DNA of 32,000 bases from the NCBI GenBank assembly GCA_021650915.1, contig CP091279.1, positions 3,000,001 to 3,032,000 of the forward strand. Reading direction: 5' to 3'. Origin of the DNA: Candidatus Brocadia sp. (GTDB lineage: Bacteria > Planctomycetota > Brocadiia > Brocadiales > Brocadiaceae). The notes under the pieces were generated by a model that saw nothing but the letters and a program-made list of their open reading frames with translations, searched no databases and was not told the origin of the DNA. Below, piece by piece: positions 26,841-32,000 of this stretch. Numbering within the stretch: the first letter of the stretch is position 1; each line of letters opens with the position of its first letter. The translations under genes and the position numbers were made by a program.

Positions 26841-26952
26841 TTTGAAAAATTACCATAATAACGATGTTACCGCACGGTGTAGGGGCGAAGCATTTGCCAT
26901 AAATTGACATAAATGTATTCACACCCCAAGCTGGCAAATGCTTCGCCCCTAC
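26841..26952. repeat. Second copy of the 112-nt hairpin repeat core, in reverse orientation relative to 885-996
   Basis: The reverse complement of 885-996 aligns to 26841-26952 with 2 mismatches by my manual alignment. It includes the stem GTAGGGGCGAAGCATTTGCC / GGCAAATGCTTCGCCCCTAC. Confidence 0.85.
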
Positions 26953-26961
26953 CTTTTGAAA

Positions 26962-27117
26962 AATCCCGAAGGGATGACATGATTATAGAAAAAACGCGCC
27001 ACCCTATTCAACCCCGTAGGGGTGGAATATCGGGAAAATAGCGATACTATGCCACCCCTGCGGGGTTAGCCATAATTGCATAACCATATGCTATAATCAT
27101 GACATCCCTTCGGGATT
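26962..27117. repeat. 156-nt nested long hairpin
   Basis: The 27-nt arms are AATCCCGAAGGGATGACATGATTATAG (26962-26988) and CTATAATCATGACATCCCTTCGGGATT (27091-27117), matching at 26/27. An inner inverted pair is AACCCCGTAGGGGTGG (27010-27025) / CCACCCCTGCGGGGTT (27052-27067). Confidence 0.8.
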
Positions 27118-27213: not shown

Positions 27214-27242
27214 TTGACATCCTATCATGTCGCAGGTATCTT
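27214..27242 (+). promoter_or_regulatory. Sigma70-type promoter candidate for the riboswitch leader
   Basis: TTGACA (27214-27219), a 17-nt spacer, then TATCTT (27237-27242). Confidence 0.45.
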
Positions 27243-27282: not shown

Positions 27283-27376
27283 ACACGACAAGGGCAAACC
27301 CTGAGTGATCGGGGGACGCAAAGTAAAGGGTCTTTCAACTAATAAGGATGTAGTTAAAGACGTACCTTATCCTTTA
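27283..27376 (+). promoter_or_regulatory. Candidate c-di-GMP-I (GEMM-I) riboswitch aptamer
   Basis: ACACGACAAGGGCAAACC-CUGA-GUGA-UCGG-GGGACGCAAAG matches the conserved AGGGCAAACC ... GNRA ... GGGACGCAAAG core of GEMM-I. The comparison is to the Vc2 aptamer, from memory. A second helix spans 27324-27376 (UAAAGG/CCUUUA, GUCUUU/AAAGAC, AACUA/UAGUU). Confidence 0.6.
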
Positions 27377-27387
27377 GCAAAAAAGAT

Positions 27388-27443
27388 AGCCTTACTGCCG
27401 AAGATGTTTCACAACAATCTTTGCAGTAAGGCTTTTTTATTTT
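27388..27443 (+). terminator. Rho-independent terminator (putative riboswitch expression platform)
   Basis: The stem is AGCCTTACTGC (27388-27398) / GCAGTAAGGCT (27423-27433), with an inner AAGAT/ATCTT pairing. It is followed by TTTTTATTTT. Confidence 0.75.
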
Positions 27444-27487: not shown

Positions 27488-28324
27488 ATGCCAAAAGGAA
27501 TTGCACTAACAACGGGACTGAATGCCGTCAGTCCGGCGCACTATGGTGGCTGGTCAGGAGAACTCAACGCATGCGAAGCGGATGCAAAAGATATGGCGGA
27601 GATTGCCCGGTCAAAAGATTACGAGGTAAAGACCTTGCTCACCAAAGAAGCCACGCGGAAGAATGTTATCGATGGGATCATAAAGGCTGCCGGCACACTG
27701 ACGTCCGGTGATATCTTTATGCTAAGTTATTCCGGCCACGGCGGACAGCTTCCCGACATGAACAGCGATGAGGATGATGCACAGGATGAAACGTGGTGCT
27801 TATATGATGGAGAAATGGTTGATGATGAGCTCTATACATTGCTTGGAAAATTTGCGAAGGGTGTTCGTGTCCTGGTCTTTTCTGATAGTTGTCACAGCGG
27901 TACCGTGACGAAGCAGGCATACTACCAATCTGCCATGAGGGCTGTGGGTGCAAAAGGGATTGCTCCGGAAGTCCGGTATCGTTTTATGCCAATGGAGGTC
28001 GCCGTTCGCACCTATCGCGATAATAAAAAATTTTATGACCCCATCTTAAAGGACGCTAAATTGAAGGAATCGCGCGATGCCGTAAACGCCTCGGTGATCC
28101 TCATCTCTGGCTGCCAGGATAATCAGCTTTCTGCCGATGGCGCCTTTAATGGCTTGTTCACTGCTAATTTGCTGCAGGTGTGGAATGAGGGAAAATTCAG
28201 AAAAGGATATCGGGCTTTTCGTCGTGCTATTGTCAATCGCATGCCCCCAGACCAGACGCCGAATTATTTCCGTGTGGGCGAGACTAGCCGTGCTTTTGAA
28301 AGACAAAGACCATTTACAATTTAA
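27488..28324 (+). CDS. Caspase-like cysteine peptidase (peptidase C14, orthocaspase-type), single domain
   Basis: 278 aa. The catalytic His is in LSYSGHGG and the catalytic Cys in VFSDSCHSG. An RBS (GGGAGGAG) lies upstream. There is no signal peptide and no accessory domain. Confidence 0.85.
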   Translation: MPKGIALTTGLNAVSPAHYGGWSGELNACEADAKDMAEIARSKDYEVKTLLTKEATRKNVIDGIIKAAGTLTSGDIFMLSYSGHGGQLPDMNSDEDDAQDETWCLYDGEMVDDELYTLLGKFAKGVRVLVFSDSCHSGTVTKQAYYQSAMRAVGAKGIAPEVRYRFMPMEVAVRTYRDNKKFYDPILKDAKLKESRDAVNASVILISGCQDNQLSADGAFNGLFTANLLQVWNEGKFRKGYRAFRRAIVNRMPPDQTPNYFRVGETSRAFERQRPFTI

Positions 28325-28472
28325 CGGGACATTTTATATTGCCACGATGAAAATTATTGTCCTTGTATGGCAATGAAGGGAAATTCGTGTAAACGATAGG
28401 GAATAACCATGACATAGGCTTAGGGAAAAATCGCTCCTTGCGTTCACGCGCGCGAGCAGTTAGGAGGGTTAT

Positions 28473-29144
28473 ATGAAACGAAATAATCTTTTGGTTCTCT
28501 TAGCGATCGTAATCAGCCTCACGGGATGTGCACCAATCTTCAATGACAATTTCGAAGCGGATGTTATTGGAGATCCACCCGCAGTCTCACCAGCCGGAAA
28601 TCCTACCGACGACAGCCTTAATATTCAGGGGCCTCCAAACAGTATCACGGTAATAAACTCCATCCCTCTCGGTTCAAAGTCCGTTAAGATTGACCGCGCA
28701 GCTAAGCCACCTCAGGTTGTTCTTGAATGTGTGACAGGAGGTGGGCCTCATACAACGGGAAATTATCTTATAAGTTATAAGGCATACAGCATACTTGCTG
28801 ATGCAGTCCCAAATTTGACCACGTCCGTTAAATCTTCAGGCGGACAGCACGCCTTTCAACTGCGACTAACAGATGGAAATTATCGGCTGGCAAGCGGTGG
28901 CAATCCAGATGAGATACTCCCGGGCGGATATGCAGCAAATGTGGTTCACTCAATATCCGTCCGTATTAACATGGACACACAAAGGTTCTGGCTGAACGTC
29001 GATGGAACTGATGTGGCCTCTGAAAAAACATTCCTGGAAGCCGGTTTTGCCGATGTGCACCTCCTGCGTTTTGAATATCCGGAACCAATTCTGGAGGCGT
29101 TGCCGGGAACGTATGTAGTTGACAATATTATCATTCGCAAATGA
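28473..29144 (+). CDS. Lipoprotein of unknown function, possibly with a concanavalin/LamG-like beta-sandwich fold
   Basis: It has a signal peptide with a lipobox (LLAIVISLTGC). The start FNDNFEAD... and end ...YVVDNIIIRK are reminiscent of LamG/DUF1080-type domains. The fold assignment is a guess. Confidence 0.6.
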   Translation: MKRNNLLVLLAIVISLTGCAPIFNDNFEADVIGDPPAVSPAGNPTDDSLNIQGPPNSITVINSIPLGSKSVKIDRAAKPPQVVLECVTGGGPHTTGNYLISYKAYSILADAVPNLTTSVKSSGGQHAFQLRLTDGNYRLASGGNPDEILPGGYAANVVHSISVRINMDTQRFWLNVDGTDVASEKTFLEAGFADVHLLRFEYPEPILEALPGTYVVDNIIIRK

Positions 29145-29393
29145 AGGATAGCTGAAACCCGGGGTAAAGAAAGGGGGGATCAAATGTGGGGTTCAGAAGG
29201 AGCGCAGGAATAACAGAAGTACAGATATCGTGTTTGCGACTATGCATGGGCAATACTGAATGAAATCATTGGCAGGAAAACAGAAATCCCCGTAGACCCG
29301 GCAGAATGGGACAAACGGATAGCGGAAATCCTGAAGTAAAAAGGAGTAAAAAATTCCGGCAATAACGCACGTCATTTAAGAAAGCGGTGATTT

Positions 29394-31172
29394 ATGAAAA
29401 TTGCATTAGTAGGCGCGGAATTGGAAGAAAATCTTGGCCTCCGTTATATAGCCTCTACGTTAGAATCGAAGGGGCATGACGTGGAAATCGTTCCCTTTAA
29501 TTCAGAGCATGATATATCGGATGCAGTAAAGCGGGTAGTCACCTTTTCACCACAAATCACCGGCTTATCAATGATGTTCACAAGCCGGGCGCGGGAATTC
29601 TGCCGTCTGGCGCAGGCGCTGCGGGAAGGAGGTTACCAGAATCACATAACAGCCGGAGGGCCTTTCGCCTCGTTCAATTCAGAACAGATGCTCAAGGACT
29701 TTCCCGCATTTGATTCGGTCTGTCTGGGTGAAGGTGAACACATCGTTAGCATGCTGGCTGATTATCCGGAAGATCTGTCCAGGGTACATAGCCTTTGCTA
29801 CCGAAAGCCGGATGGGTCTATAAGAACCAACTTTTCCACAGGCAATCAGGATGATCTTGACACACTGCCGTTTCCCAAACGGATGACATTCCACGAATAT
29901 TTCGATAAGCCGATAGCAAGCATTCTTACCAGCCGGGGATGCTGGCGCAACTGCGCCTTTTGCAGCATCAACGCCTGGTATGAAAGGGGAGGCGGAAAGA
30001 AATTTCGCGTACGAAGCGTGGAGAGTATCGTGGCGGAGATGAAGGACCTTTACTTTCATCACGATGTCAGGATCTTTAATTTTCAGGATGACAACTTCTT
30101 TCTCCCAAAACCGGAACATGCGCTCCGCCGTTTCGAGGAGCTGAGAGATGGATTGAAACATGAGGGAATCGAAGGGATTGCTATTGCTGTGAAGGCGCGG
30201 CCCGATAGCATTACCTATGACTCGATCCGGGTGCTGGATGGGCTGGGGCTGTTTCGCGTATTCCTGGGAGTAGAGAATGCGCATGAGAACGGTTTACGCA
30301 ACTTGAACCGGAAATGTACCCTTGACCAGATCCTGAATGCACTGCGCATCCTCAATGACTTTGATGTGCATCTTGCCTATAATTTACTCATGTTCGAACC
30401 CGACACCGTTTTAGATGATATCCTGGTCAACTTACGCTTTATCGAACGGCATATCGAGAATCCCTTTAATTTTTGCCGCGCAGAGGCTTATCCCGGCACC
30501 GGGCTGGAAGTGAAACTCCGGGCCGAAGGCAGGCTGCTTGGTGATTATTTTGGATTCGATTACCGACTGAAAGACCCGCGATCCGAGGCGTTTCACCAAA
30601 TCGCTAATTACGCATTCTTTGACCGTAATTTCAGTGATTTCGGGCTGCACTACTTCAATATGCAGGTGGATTTCTATTACCAACTGCTGCGTCGGTTCCA
30701 TCCTGAAGTGCTGATGCAGACACTCCGTGCGGCTGTGCGTAATTTCATCAAACAGACCAACCTGGACACGTATGAGTGCCTTTGCCAAATCTATGATTTT
30801 GTGGCAACGGCAGATGCGAATGACCACGTCATGGTCCGTGGTTTTGCACGAGAGATGAGAGAACGCGTTGATGAAAGGAGCAGGGGCTTGCATTCCCAGG
30901 GTGAGCGTATCCTGCGCTGGTTGAGCGACAGGTATGATCGTCGCGGCAAGGATGTCGGAGTGAAAAGATTTATGTCAAATACCGGGGCGTTGTCCTTCCT
31001 GAACTGCAAACCGATGCCATATTCCAGCCGGGACAGTTTGGAAAAACTGGAATTTGTGACGTCAAAGGCTGAATGGATGGATGAGGCAGACCTGCTGGGC
31101 GTAGCGTCTTCGCCCATCCCTTACAACATATTTAAGAACCGATTTGCTGAACAAAAAGAAGAGAGGAGGTAA
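29394..31172 (+). CDS. B12-binding-domain radical SAM enzyme (class B rSAM) with a roughly 200-aa C-terminal extension of unknown function
   Basis: It has an N-terminal flavodoxin-like B12-binding domain (MKIALVGAELEENLGLRYIASTLESKGHDVEIV) and the radical SAM cluster motif SRGCWRNCAFCS (CxxxCxxC). Confidence 0.9.
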   Translation: MKIALVGAELEENLGLRYIASTLESKGHDVEIVPFNSEHDISDAVKRVVTFSPQITGLSMMFTSRAREFCRLAQALREGGYQNHITAGGPFASFNSEQMLKDFPAFDSVCLGEGEHIVSMLADYPEDLSRVHSLCYRKPDGSIRTNFSTGNQDDLDTLPFPKRMTFHEYFDKPIASILTSRGCWRNCAFCSINAWYERGGGKKFRVRSVESIVAEMKDLYFHHDVRIFNFQDDNFFLPKPEHALRRFEELRDGLKHEGIEGIAIAVKARPDSITYDSIRVLDGLGLFRVFLGVENAHENGLRNLNRKCTLDQILNALRILNDFDVHLAYNLLMFEPDTVLDDILVNLRFIERHIENPFNFCRAEAYPGTGLEVKLRAEGRLLGDYFGFDYRLKDPRSEAFHQIANYAFFDRNFSDFGLHYFNMQVDFYYQLLRRFHPEVLMQTLRAAVRNFIKQTNLDTYECLCQIYDFVATADANDHVMVRGFAREMRERVDERSRGLHSQGERILRWLSDRYDRRGKDVGVKRFMSNTGALSFLNCKPMPYSSRDSLEKLEFVTSKAEWMDEADLLGVASSPIPYNIFKNRFAEQKEERR

Positions 31173-31292
31173 AAAACTTGCAAAAGAAGACGCTTTTGCA
31201 GGTTCCTGCGAAAAACCAGAATCTTATAGTGAAAACGGGGGAAGACAGGTTTCCCTCACCTTTTACCTTACGCCATCATAAGGAGGTGCAAT

Positions 31293-32000
31293 ATGGACGG
31301 AAAGACTTTTGCTCGTATACGTGATTGGGTGGAACCGGCGCATCCGGCGGTCGTAAAATTGTATGATGATCTGATCGATATCTATACCCGGATTCGTGAG
31401 AGATATCAGAAGGAAATAGATAATGCATTTGACAGGATATCACGGCAGATTGGGTTTGTGGTAACTACCACGGTGCCGGTCGTGTTCGAAATAGGAGACA
31501 AGGGTGAATTTAAGCGTATGGGCATGGGGGCGGAGCATCTCAAAGATACGCTTTTTGATAAGGAGCTATCTAAAGTATTTGGACCACATCCAGACCCGTG
31601 GAAGGTCGCAGCGGGGAAATACAATCTGTACTTAGTCTGGTTCGATGCACTCCATTTGAAGCTACGGACGGACTGGATGGAGCCTGCGCATTTTTTCAGG
31701 GAAAGGTTTGCGGCGGACATTGCATCAGGACCCATGGCCGGGATCAGCAGTAGGGCATTAAAACAGGGGTGGGAATGGCAGGAACCAGCGCACTGGTTTG
31801 ACCCGGGAATAGCCATTGCGGTAGAAGAGTTGGTGCTGATCGAGGCGATCGACCGGGTATATCCCGAGCTGCGTCTTGTGGATCGGGTGGCCTTTGTCCG
31901 GGATGCCCTCCGGAAGCGAGTAAGGCCTGAAGTGATGGAACCGGCGCATTTCCACCGAGTTGAGAAAGGGATATGTCCGGAAGGTACTGAGGGGAACCGC
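31293..32000 (+). CDS. Protein of unknown function with four [DE][WV]xEPAH[FWP] motifs; 3' end lies outside the window
   Basis: This ORF is not in the ORF track because it runs off the window. AGGAGG (31281-31286) lies 6 nt before the ATG at 31293. There are 236 open codons to the window edge. EPAH occurs at residues 14, 130, 164 and 216, using different synonymous codons, so the conservation is at protein level. Confidence 0.6.
   Translation, partial: MDGKTFARIRDWVEPAHPAVVKLYDDLIDIYTRIRERYQKEIDNAFDRISRQIGFVVTTTVPVVFEIGDKGEFKRMGMGAEHLKDTLFDKELSKVFGPHPDPWKVAAGKYNLYLVWFDALHLKLRTDWMEPAHFFRERFAADIASGPMAGISSRALKQGWEWQEPAHWFDPGIAIAVEELVLIEAIDRVYPELRLVDRVAFVRDALRKRVRPEVMEPAHFHRVEKGICPEGTEGNR

Follow-up and report, generated by a model that had tools for sequence, protein, structure and literature searches.

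The 32,000-nucleotide (nt) stretch of Candidatus Brocadia DNA studied here (positions 3,000,001 to 3,032,000 of contig CP091279.1, assembly GCA_021650915.1; "the window" below) ends with two adjacent genes, one encoding an enzyme of the class B, or cobalamin-dependent, radical S-adenosylmethionine (rSAM) kind, and the other a partner protein in which the four-residue motif EPAH is repeated. These genes form a two-gene module that is conserved across bacteria and archaea and is undescribed in the family libraries and literature that we searched. We consider it somewhat likely that the enzyme acts on its partner by modifying a single residue within each EPAH motif. The pair is preceded by an orthocaspase gene and a lipoprotein gene behind a riboswitch leader, and an initial annotation of the window, made from the sequence alone, had raised the possibility that all four genes form one pathway or defense system. 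That idea did not survive comparison with other genomes, and we describe the region instead as a mosaic whose modules are independent and which lies on a variable island close to the replication origin of the Candidatus Brocadia genome.

Conservation of the rSAM-EPAH gene pair

The pair and the RNA structures between its genes occupy the following positions.

29394-31172, plus strand: class B (cobalamin-dependent) rSAM enzyme, 592 amino acids (aa), with domains PF02310 and PF04055
31175-31265, plus strand: two stable hairpins in the spacer between the genes, RNA fold of -33 kcal/mol, z = -2.5
31293-32000, plus strand: EPAH-motif protein, 236 aa, complete, with the stop codon just past the window end

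To sample the pair we used 53 loci from a scan of one genome per species. In 49 of these 53 species-level loci the rSAM and EPAH genes are immediate neighbors on one strand; two of the four exceptions are cut by contig ends, and in the other two the EPAH gene is truncated. The 49 include one locus with the reversed gene order and one with a single inserted gene. The spacer has a median length of 76 nt and lies between -4 and 125 nt in 44 of the 49. More than ten phyla of bacteria and archaea are represented, among them Planctomycetota, Acidobacteriota, Geobacter relatives, Chloroflexota, Methanoperedens/ANME-2 and Bathyarchaeota. When the search was begun from the rSAM side, the EPAH gene was found downstream in both of two loci, and the recurrence of the same longest-contig size suggests that many homologues of the two proteins share contigs. 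We found no relatives on viral contigs or plasmids.

Both families are large and very well conserved, with at least 655 cluster representatives for the partner (E<=1e-3, 50-65% identity in very different lineages) and at least 978 for the enzyme. The best 120 enzyme homologues are 65-92% identical to the window protein and include Methanoperedens sequences; across bacterial and archaeal phyla the identity is 59-77%, and it falls to about 58% among relatives in the pair-anchored loci. The initial annotation had regarded peptide or protein maturation as the usual setting of an rSAM gene beside one for a repeat-motif protein, and the tight conservation of the pair bears this out.

A third conserved gene was not found: counted over 124 co-oriented neighbors, at distances of up to 3 kb, every Pfam family occurs four times at most, and no small ORF (open reading frame) that might serve as a separate precursor peptide is conserved on either flank. 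With neither a recurring neighbor family nor a conserved small ORF, the pair stands as a self-contained module. No paper that we found joins EPAH with radical SAM chemistry; EPAH alone returned unrelated uses, and the class B rSAM literature provided analogies only. The spacer hairpins in the window are not followed by a strong U-tract, the first having a T-run on the opposite strand only. They may act as an attenuator or RNA stabilizer, tuning the ratio of enzyme to partner.

Other Brocadia genomes indicate, by gene order, that the pair moves independently of the genes that precede it in the window. In B. carolinensis the order is riboswitch, decayed caspase gene, GEVED-domain protein, C39/C70-like protease, an unfamiliar protein and then the pair. 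In Brocadia sp. UTAMX1 the pair is at another chromosomal site, behind a C39/C70-like protease and a companion protein, with neither caspase nor lipoprotein. The C39/C70-like protease and companion protein upstream of the pair in Brocadia both carry export signals. In a metagenome-assembled genome (MAG) labeled 'Nitrospinae', the region just upstream of the pair contains a group II intron domain (L012 4820-5047, RF02005, 108.8 bits) together with a DDE transposase; the genes of this locus are 83-87% identical to Brocadia genes, suggesting either a mobile context or a misbinned anammox contig.

The EPAH-motif protein

The initial annotation had noted a repeated short motif in the last protein of the window, and there are indeed four copies of EPAH, beginning at residues 14, 130, 164 and 216.

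31332-31343, plus strand: EPAH motif 1, residues 14-17, DWVEPAHP, invariant in 47 of 47 aligned homologues
31680-31691, plus strand: EPAH motif 2, residues 130-133, DWMEPAHFF, in a segment of low predicted local distance difference test (pLDDT) score
31782-31793, plus strand: EPAH motif 3, residues 164-167, context EWQEPAHWFDPG, pLDDT about 46-51
31938-31949, plus strand: EPAH motif 4, residues 216-219, context VRPEVMEPAHFH, tandemly duplicated in homologues

We collected 507 instances of the motif from 120 proteins, giving the consensus (R)P[DE][WV]xEPAH[FWP]; E, P and H are conserved in every instance, and the chance expectation is 0.0034 per protein. Arginine is found at -5 in 47% of instances and at +5 in 26%. 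Motif 1 is followed by proline in 119 of the 120 proteins. In motif 2, P131 and H133 are invariant, with E130 and A132 present in at least 90% of the aligned sequences. The most conserved stretch is EPAHWF, at motif 3, which we used as a search pattern.

The number of copies ranges from 2 to 12, with four in 91 of the 120 proteins and five to seven in another 23, and the extra copies arise by local duplication of VRPEVMEPAHFR-like units. Motifs are 25-120 residues apart in most members and 7-9 residues apart where they are closest. The archaeal members have runs such as WMEPVHHRPWCEPVHTPWMEPVH, reaching 12 copies in one Methanosarcinales protein. In the MAG that encodes this protein (L060 9851-11368) and in a Methanoperedens locus (L030), EPVH is used besides EPAH, in tandem and at the same 7-9 residue spacing. 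These archaeal motifs are set in His/Trp/Pro-rich stretches that are reminiscent of metal-binding octarepeats.

The AlphaFold2 (AF2) model of the window protein has a pLDDT of 77, with a confident core formed by residues 20-125 and 170-210. Three of the four motifs (2, 3 and 4) are in segments with pLDDT of about 46-57. A sequence that is invariant, stands in a flexible context and varies in copy number has the hallmark of a site recognized by something else. We considered a di-iron reading of EPAH as an ExxH motif and judged it unlikely, as the motif is located where helices begin or within linkers that are disordered, its four residues are invariant throughout, and the copy number varies.

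The partners are 208-350 aa long and have a folded core. No match to the window protein was found in Pfam or NCBIfam at E<=0.1, no Pfam domain occurs among the best 120 of the 655 homologues, and neither a fold nor a sequence relative was identified in the PDB, where a profile search against PDB sequences returned noise only. Like the rSAM enzyme, the EPAH protein has no export signal. In many homologues the C-terminus is a conserved tail of helix-like character, ...L(A/S)xVLR(K/R)YG(Y/F), at about columns 323-338 of the alignment; the Brocadia protein of the window does not have this tail.

The class B radical SAM enzyme

The initial annotation had described the 592-aa protein as a class B rSAM enzyme with an uncharacterized C-terminal domain, and our domain searches agree. 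The B12-binding domain PF02310 is matched at residues 12-119 (E 2.8e-18) and the rSAM core PF04055 with E 1.4e-17; the CX3CX2C motif, CWRNCAFC at residues 183-190, is invariant across 33 homologues. Residues ~395-515 form an all-helical bundle in the AF2 model, and this C-terminal domain has no family match.

The best PDB fold matches of the AF2 model are OxsB (E 5.5e-19), TsrM, MgmA, CysS and TokK, with an identity to any solved class B member of only 14-17%. By its modeled fold, then, the protein has class B architecture and is predicted to bind cobalamin. It falls below every NCBIfam cut-off for the named class B equivalogs (HpnR, HpnJ, BchE, the ladderane rSAM, MgmA, ApyD and others): the best match, to HpnR, scores 97.9 bits against a cut-off of 650, and all 32 matches are far under their cut-offs. 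These comparisons place the enzyme in an uncharacterized class B subfamily.

Comparison with known systems

The individual parts of the locus are of known kinds: a class B rSAM enzyme, an orthocaspase, a GEMM-I riboswitch and a lipoprotein. Class B enzymes that act on proteins or peptides include MgmA and Mmp10 (both on methyl-coenzyme M reductase), PoyB and PoyC, the bottromycin methyltransferases, and MpcB with MpcC. The window enzyme shares with them the B12-binding domain and the rSAM TIM barrel with its CX3CX2C motif, and it is likewise encoded beside its likely target or partner. MgmA methylates a full-length protein, and both MgmA and Mmp10 act on whole proteins. The pair described here differs in that the 240-aa folded partner, with 4-12 motif copies, is neither a leader-core peptide nor a large enzyme subunit; the low identity of the enzyme to its solved relatives, the lack of an equivalog and the absence of further conserved biosynthetic genes also set it apart.

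TvgA (TVGG) and TigB (TIGSVS) are repeat-motif precursors of RiPPs (peptides made on ribosomes and modified after translation) in which a single rSAM enzyme modifies each repeat (PMC10878394). The TvgA/TvgB and TigB/TigE systems resemble the EPAH pair in having a short invariant motif, variable repeats and a single adjoining rSAM gene. However, their enzymes are SPASM-type rather than B12-type, and their precursors are ~60 aa long with back-to-back repeats and are accompanied by transporters, whereas the EPAH motifs are scattered through a conserved folded protein. More generally, the pair has few of the marks of a RiPP cluster. Beside the maturase there is no short leader-core precursor, only the partner of over 200 residues; a leader peptidase or exporter is not conserved, as peptidases are near the pair in ~20% of loci and a transporter is conserved in none; and the searches of Pfam and NCBIfam for the partner returned no leader family such as Nif11 or NHLP.

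The two-gene logic of an rSAM enzyme with a dedicated polypeptide, one with no known role other than being modified, is also seen in systems that build a protein-derived cofactor or crosslink, such as PqqA/PqqE, QhpC/QhpD and MftA/MftC. The enzymes PqqE, QhpD and MftC are SPASM/twitch rSAMs whose systems have RRE (RiPP recognition element) domains and additional conserved pathway genes, and we do not see these with the EPAH pair.

The riboswitch and the orthocaspase

All four ORFs are on the plus strand at the coordinates given by the initial annotation, with spacers of 148 nt (caspase-lipoprotein), 249 nt (lipoprotein-rSAM) and 120 nt (rSAM-EPAH), and the riboswitch leader that it had placed ahead of them is present as well. 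It had also assigned a strong Shine-Dalgarno sequence to each gene, which is true of three; that of the rSAM gene, GGTGA, is weaker. The leader and the first two genes are as follows.

27214-27242, plus strand: candidate sigma-70-like promoter upstream of the riboswitch, TTGACA-17-TATCTT, 10 of 12 consensus matches
27284-27403, plus strand: c-di-GMP-I-GGC riboswitch aptamer, Rfam RF03167, 66.1 bits against a gathering score of 59
27388-27443, plus strand: expression platform with an intrinsic terminator, hairpin 27388-27433 and U-tract 27434-27443
27488-28324, plus strand: orthocaspase (bacterial metacaspase) of the GSU0716 type, 278 aa, PF00656 Peptidase_C14, E 3e-26
28473-29144, plus strand: exported lipoprotein, 223 aa, lipobox LTG/C at residues 17-20

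The promoter candidate is weakly backed, the consensus scan having given 12 sites against 8.3 expected from shuffles. The aptamer match spans the full model (positions 1-80 of 80 in cmscan). The terminator folds with -30.2 kcal/mol (z = -4.3), a stability reached by none of 200 shuffles, and in the cmscan alignment the 5' arm of its hairpin shares positions with the aptamer's 3' strand. This sharing of a strand suggests an ON switch, in which ligand binding by the c-di-GMP-I (GGC) aptamer would lead to read-through and hence to expression of the orthocaspase. The element resembles the GGC variant (RF03167) of the c-di-GMP-I, or GEMM-I, class in its full-length, above-threshold match and its terminator-type platform, and differs in having an orthocaspase as the downstream gene; a response to cyclic di-GMP (c-di-GMP) is predicted from this likeness.

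The first gene had been described as a cytosolic caspase-fold protease with a His/Cys dyad, and both dyad residues are in place, H84 in YSGHGG and C135 in DSCHSG, with no signal peptide, so that the protein is expected to be cytosolic. It aligns over its full length with PDB 3BIJ (GSU0716; E 7e-118), and the conserved dyad makes it a probable protease by homology. In the literature, GSU0716 of Geobacter sulfurreducens is placed among the bacterial type I metacaspases that lack a prodomain (PMC3734836). Unlike GSU0716, the caspases of the window and of B. carolinensis are behind a c-di-GMP-I-GGC riboswitch.

We rejected the riboswitch as a conserved partner of the caspase. It was not upstream of the caspase in any of 20 other loci of the family that we scanned; these yielded a single c-di-GMP-I hit, unrelated and on the opposite strand. 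In B. carolinensis there is a near-identical copy of the aptamer (L011 3384-3503), and riboswitch and terminator are kept almost base for base. The caspase ORF that follows (riboswitch and ORF together at L011 3384-3846) has decayed, with internal stops and a truncation, and the rSAM-EPAH pair is intact. The leader there has either outlasted its gene or come to control another. A second c-di-GMP-I riboswitch (RF01051, 53.9 bits) is found in B. carolinensis on the minus strand at L011 11853-11946, 3' of the EPAH gene and directed back at it; a search behind it for an ORF of at least 90 aa found none.

To look for the other genes from the caspase side, we took 80 metagenome loci with 58-89% identical caspase homologues, many of them on short contigs. 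None of the 80 has the rSAM enzyme, the EPAH protein, the lipoprotein or p789, the 789-aa protein encoded just downstream of the pair. In the closest relative, with a caspase 89% identical, a different lipoprotein and then an SNF2 gene follow the caspase, and the rSAM block is absent. On this evidence the caspase belongs to a module separate from the rSAM-EPAH pair.

The lipoprotein

The signal of the lipoprotein, MKRNNLLVLLAIVISLTG followed by C, fits the lipobox [LVI][ASTG][GA]C. Searches of Pfam and NCBIfam found no family for this protein, in line with the initial annotation, which had recognized none for the exported lipoprotein. The family is small, with 140 representative clusters at E<=1e-3, and the domain also occurs as the C-terminal part of some large surface proteins with beta-helix, PKD or BACON domains; by these relatives, the lipoprotein probably carries a beta-rich surface or binding domain. 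It is present in none of ~50 other pair loci and none of the 80 caspase loci, and it is a stand-alone gene. We considered and rejected a relationship (E 5.4) with an exported protein of 212 aa encoded ahead of the pair in other Brocadia.

Neighboring genes and the genomic setting

Across the 53 pair-anchored and 80 caspase-anchored loci that we examined, the four-gene set is not conserved, a result that the initial annotation had itself named as refuting the connection; its caution that linkage of the four genes was unproven was justified. A looser link does remain. In a Geobacter MAG (L042), one operon with spacers of 24-64 nt contains rSAM, EPAH, a caspase (65% identical), Amidase_2/SH3, p789 and DUF6345 genes. 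This is the only one of ~50 other pair loci with a caspase.

The p789 gene starts 44 nt after the EPAH gene (L001 12655-15544, 3 to 3544 bases past the window end). The protein has two Cys/Trp-rich hydrophobic segments near its N-terminus and no family match in Pfam, NCBIfam or PADLOC. The EPAH gene is immediately followed by p789 in two further loci, one of them in G. hydrogenophilus DSM 13691. We rejected p789 as a conserved third gene of the module, since it follows EPAH in only 4 of ~52 loci and has a downstream partner of its own, a DUF1360-like small membrane protein. Its 563 homologues include occurrences without the rSAM pair, and the p789-DUF1360 pair is conserved by itself in unrelated genomes; at 56-58% GC it has the highest GC content of the locus.

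Peptidases recur near the pair (C1 in 4 loci, S9/DPPIV in 2-3, C39/C70-like in 3 lineages, C14 caspase in 2), which by a rough estimate exceeds chance for such rare families. They are found in only about a fifth of the loci and some are exported, and we treat them as a lead rather than as part of the system. In Geomobilimonas luticola, the EPAH gene is followed by one for a cytosolic C1 protease of the papain family (L047 10913-12838), whose long C-terminal extension belongs to no known family, and a predicted lipoprotein, alpha/beta-hydrolase-like by eye, is found between the rSAM and EPAH genes (L047 8646-9842). In Geobacter hydrogenophilus, the p789 homologue is followed by a short ORF with a Cys-rich tail (CPFCTTCITSCLECVTSCTACVACSNDVF) and then by an rSAM gene (L049 13400-15312), an arrangement that looks like a separate sactipeptide- or ranthipeptide-like cluster. 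SPASM domains are present in two neighbor proteins of the scanned pair loci. PADLOC identified no complete defense system, only weak single hits for the caspase (PDLC02987, 1.2e-09) and the rSAM enzyme (PDC-M51A, 7.5e-10), and it returned no match for the EPAH protein or the lipoprotein.

The window adjoins dnaA and oriC of the Candidatus Brocadia genome, where the GC skew flips sign. The stretch from the rSAM gene through EPAH to p789 has 49-58% GC, compared with 39-45% in the dnaA, dnaN and gyrB backbone, which fits acquisition by transfer. Past the window end, the p789-DUF1360 pair is followed by genes for a DpdE/ZorD-like SNF2 helicase (E 3e-130), an endonuclease of the BglII type and a type II methyltransferase of the MT-A70 type (L001 16087-20270); this restriction or defense-type block identifies the region as a variable island. 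Between dnaA and the riboswitch is a perfect 21-nt palindromic element, GTAGGGGCGAAGCATTTGCCA ... TGGCAAATGCTTCGCCCCTAC, with a 32-nt loop (26879-26952), which occurs again near position 900 (888-955); by chance, no such element is expected. Next to the copy that follows dnaA is a 27-nt inverted repeat with a 102-nt spacer (26962-27117). These may be REP- or MITE-like (repetitive extragenic palindromic, or miniature inverted-repeat transposable) elements of the intergenic region close to oriC.

Possible functions of the pair

We favor, with modest confidence, modification of the EPAH motifs by the rSAM enzyme. The enzyme would recognize the partner encoded just downstream of it and would apply 5'-deoxyadenosyl radical and methylcobalamin chemistry to one residue in each motif. 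C-methylation is the commonest class B rSAM reaction, and methylation of an unactivated carbon or of the His ring would be the likeliest outcome, with the modified EPAH protein itself as the working product. The motif behaves like a modification site because it is invariant, far above chance in frequency, variable in copy number and, in the window protein, located mostly in low-pLDDT segments. The role of the partner as substrate is our inference, and several observations weigh against it. No RRE domain is recognizable in the enzyme, for which no RRE-specific profile search was made. Conservation of the partner extends from one end of the protein to the other, and it has a folded core, as might also be expected of an obligatory subunit or scaffold. 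Its gene is downstream of the enzyme gene, sometimes by only 4 nt, an arrangement seen more often with enzyme subunits than with RiPP precursors. As an ExxH pattern, EPAH could also bind metal. In addition, the caspase and p789 genes beside the pair in Geobacter mean that the modules are not fully independent. Several of these points would equally suit an EPAH protein that is an obligatory partner of the rSAM enzyme, as a scaffold, a substrate-recognition subunit or a metal or cofactor subunit, with the reaction taking place on a small molecule, a lipid or an unlinked peptide, and we regard this as the less probable but a real possibility. The 4-nt spacers or overlapping genes of some pairs suggest stoichiometric co-production, and the best NCBIfam similarities of the enzyme, although far below the cut-offs, are to lipid and tetrapyrrole enzymes (HpnR, HpnJ, BchE). 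There is also a precedent in clavusporin biosynthesis, where the B12-rSAM enzyme MpcB requires a partner of unknown function, the DUF5825 protein MpcC (PMC10849626). However, the EPAH protein has no sequence similarity to DUF5825 or to any other Pfam family, no conserved precursor ORF or other biosynthetic gene accompanies the pair, and it is hard to square a fixed binding or metal site with 2 to 12 copies that may stand in tandem, 7-9 residues apart, in disordered stretches.

The EPAH protein might instead be a multi-core precursor from which a protease excises modified EPAH peptides, giving a RiPP-like product or a peptide-derived cofactor. We think this improbable, although TvgA and TigB show that repeat-motif precursors served by a single rSAM enzyme exist (PMC10878394) and near the pair no functional class recurs more often than peptidases. 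An adjacent peptidase is lacking in roughly 80% of the loci, and a conserved transporter in all of them; the C39/C70-like protease and the companion protein carry export signals, which the rSAM and EPAH proteins do not; and the stretches that separate the motifs are folded and strongly conserved, as the spacers of multi-core precursors are not. Metacaspases cleave after Arg or Lys, and basic residues often flank the motif. An extended form of the precursor idea, more doubtful again, would make the EPAH proteins the precursors of a new, horizontally spread class of B12-rSAM peptides or cofactors, common to anammox bacteria, Geobacter relatives, Acidobacteriota and methane-oxidizing or methanogen-related archaea. 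Units such as R/EPAHFR/ would be freed by a locally recruited cysteine protease, in this Brocadia by a c-di-GMP-switched, Arg/Lys-specific orthocaspase, and a second messenger would then gate a maturation step. Least probable of all, and in our judgment very unlikely, is that riboswitch, caspase, lipoprotein, rSAM enzyme and EPAH protein (perhaps with p789) make up one c-di-GMP-controlled conflict, programmed-death or defense system. The genes are all co-oriented, with no intrinsic terminator found by a scan of the spacers between the four, and the region has a foreign-looking GC content; the Geobacter operon unites rSAM, EPAH, caspase, amidase, p789 and DUF6345 genes; p789 follows EPAH in two further loci; and the SNF2, BglII and methyltransferase block is just downstream. 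Yet all 80 caspase loci are without any other component, and the ~50 pair loci are without the lipoprotein and, but for one, without the caspase. The riboswitch does not precede the caspase in the 20 other loci, B. carolinensis has lost the caspase and kept both riboswitch and pair, and the UTAMX1 pair is at another site. The relative with the 89%-identical caspase continues into a different lipoprotein and SNF2, p789 occurs with its own DUF1360 partner in the absence of the pair, and the PADLOC hits are weak and to single proteins, with no phage or plasmid copies found. Modification of the EPAH motifs by the adjacent enzyme remains the proposal that we prefer.

Significance

The absence of the four-gene set elsewhere guards against annotating a chance juxtaposition of caspase, lipoprotein and rSAM genes as a system. 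For the pair itself, neither family has a curated model or a solved structure, and neither is the subject of a paper in the literature that we searched. The pair is small enough for direct testing in E. coli, and it occurs in the cultured organisms Geobacter hydrogenophilus DSM 13691 and Geomobilimonas luticola JCM 17780. If the enzyme does modify the EPAH motifs, class B radical SAM chemistry would here give rise to a post-translational modification of proteins, or a product derived from a protein, that is new. The organisms that carry the pair have a central place in the anaerobic cycling of nitrogen, methane and metals.

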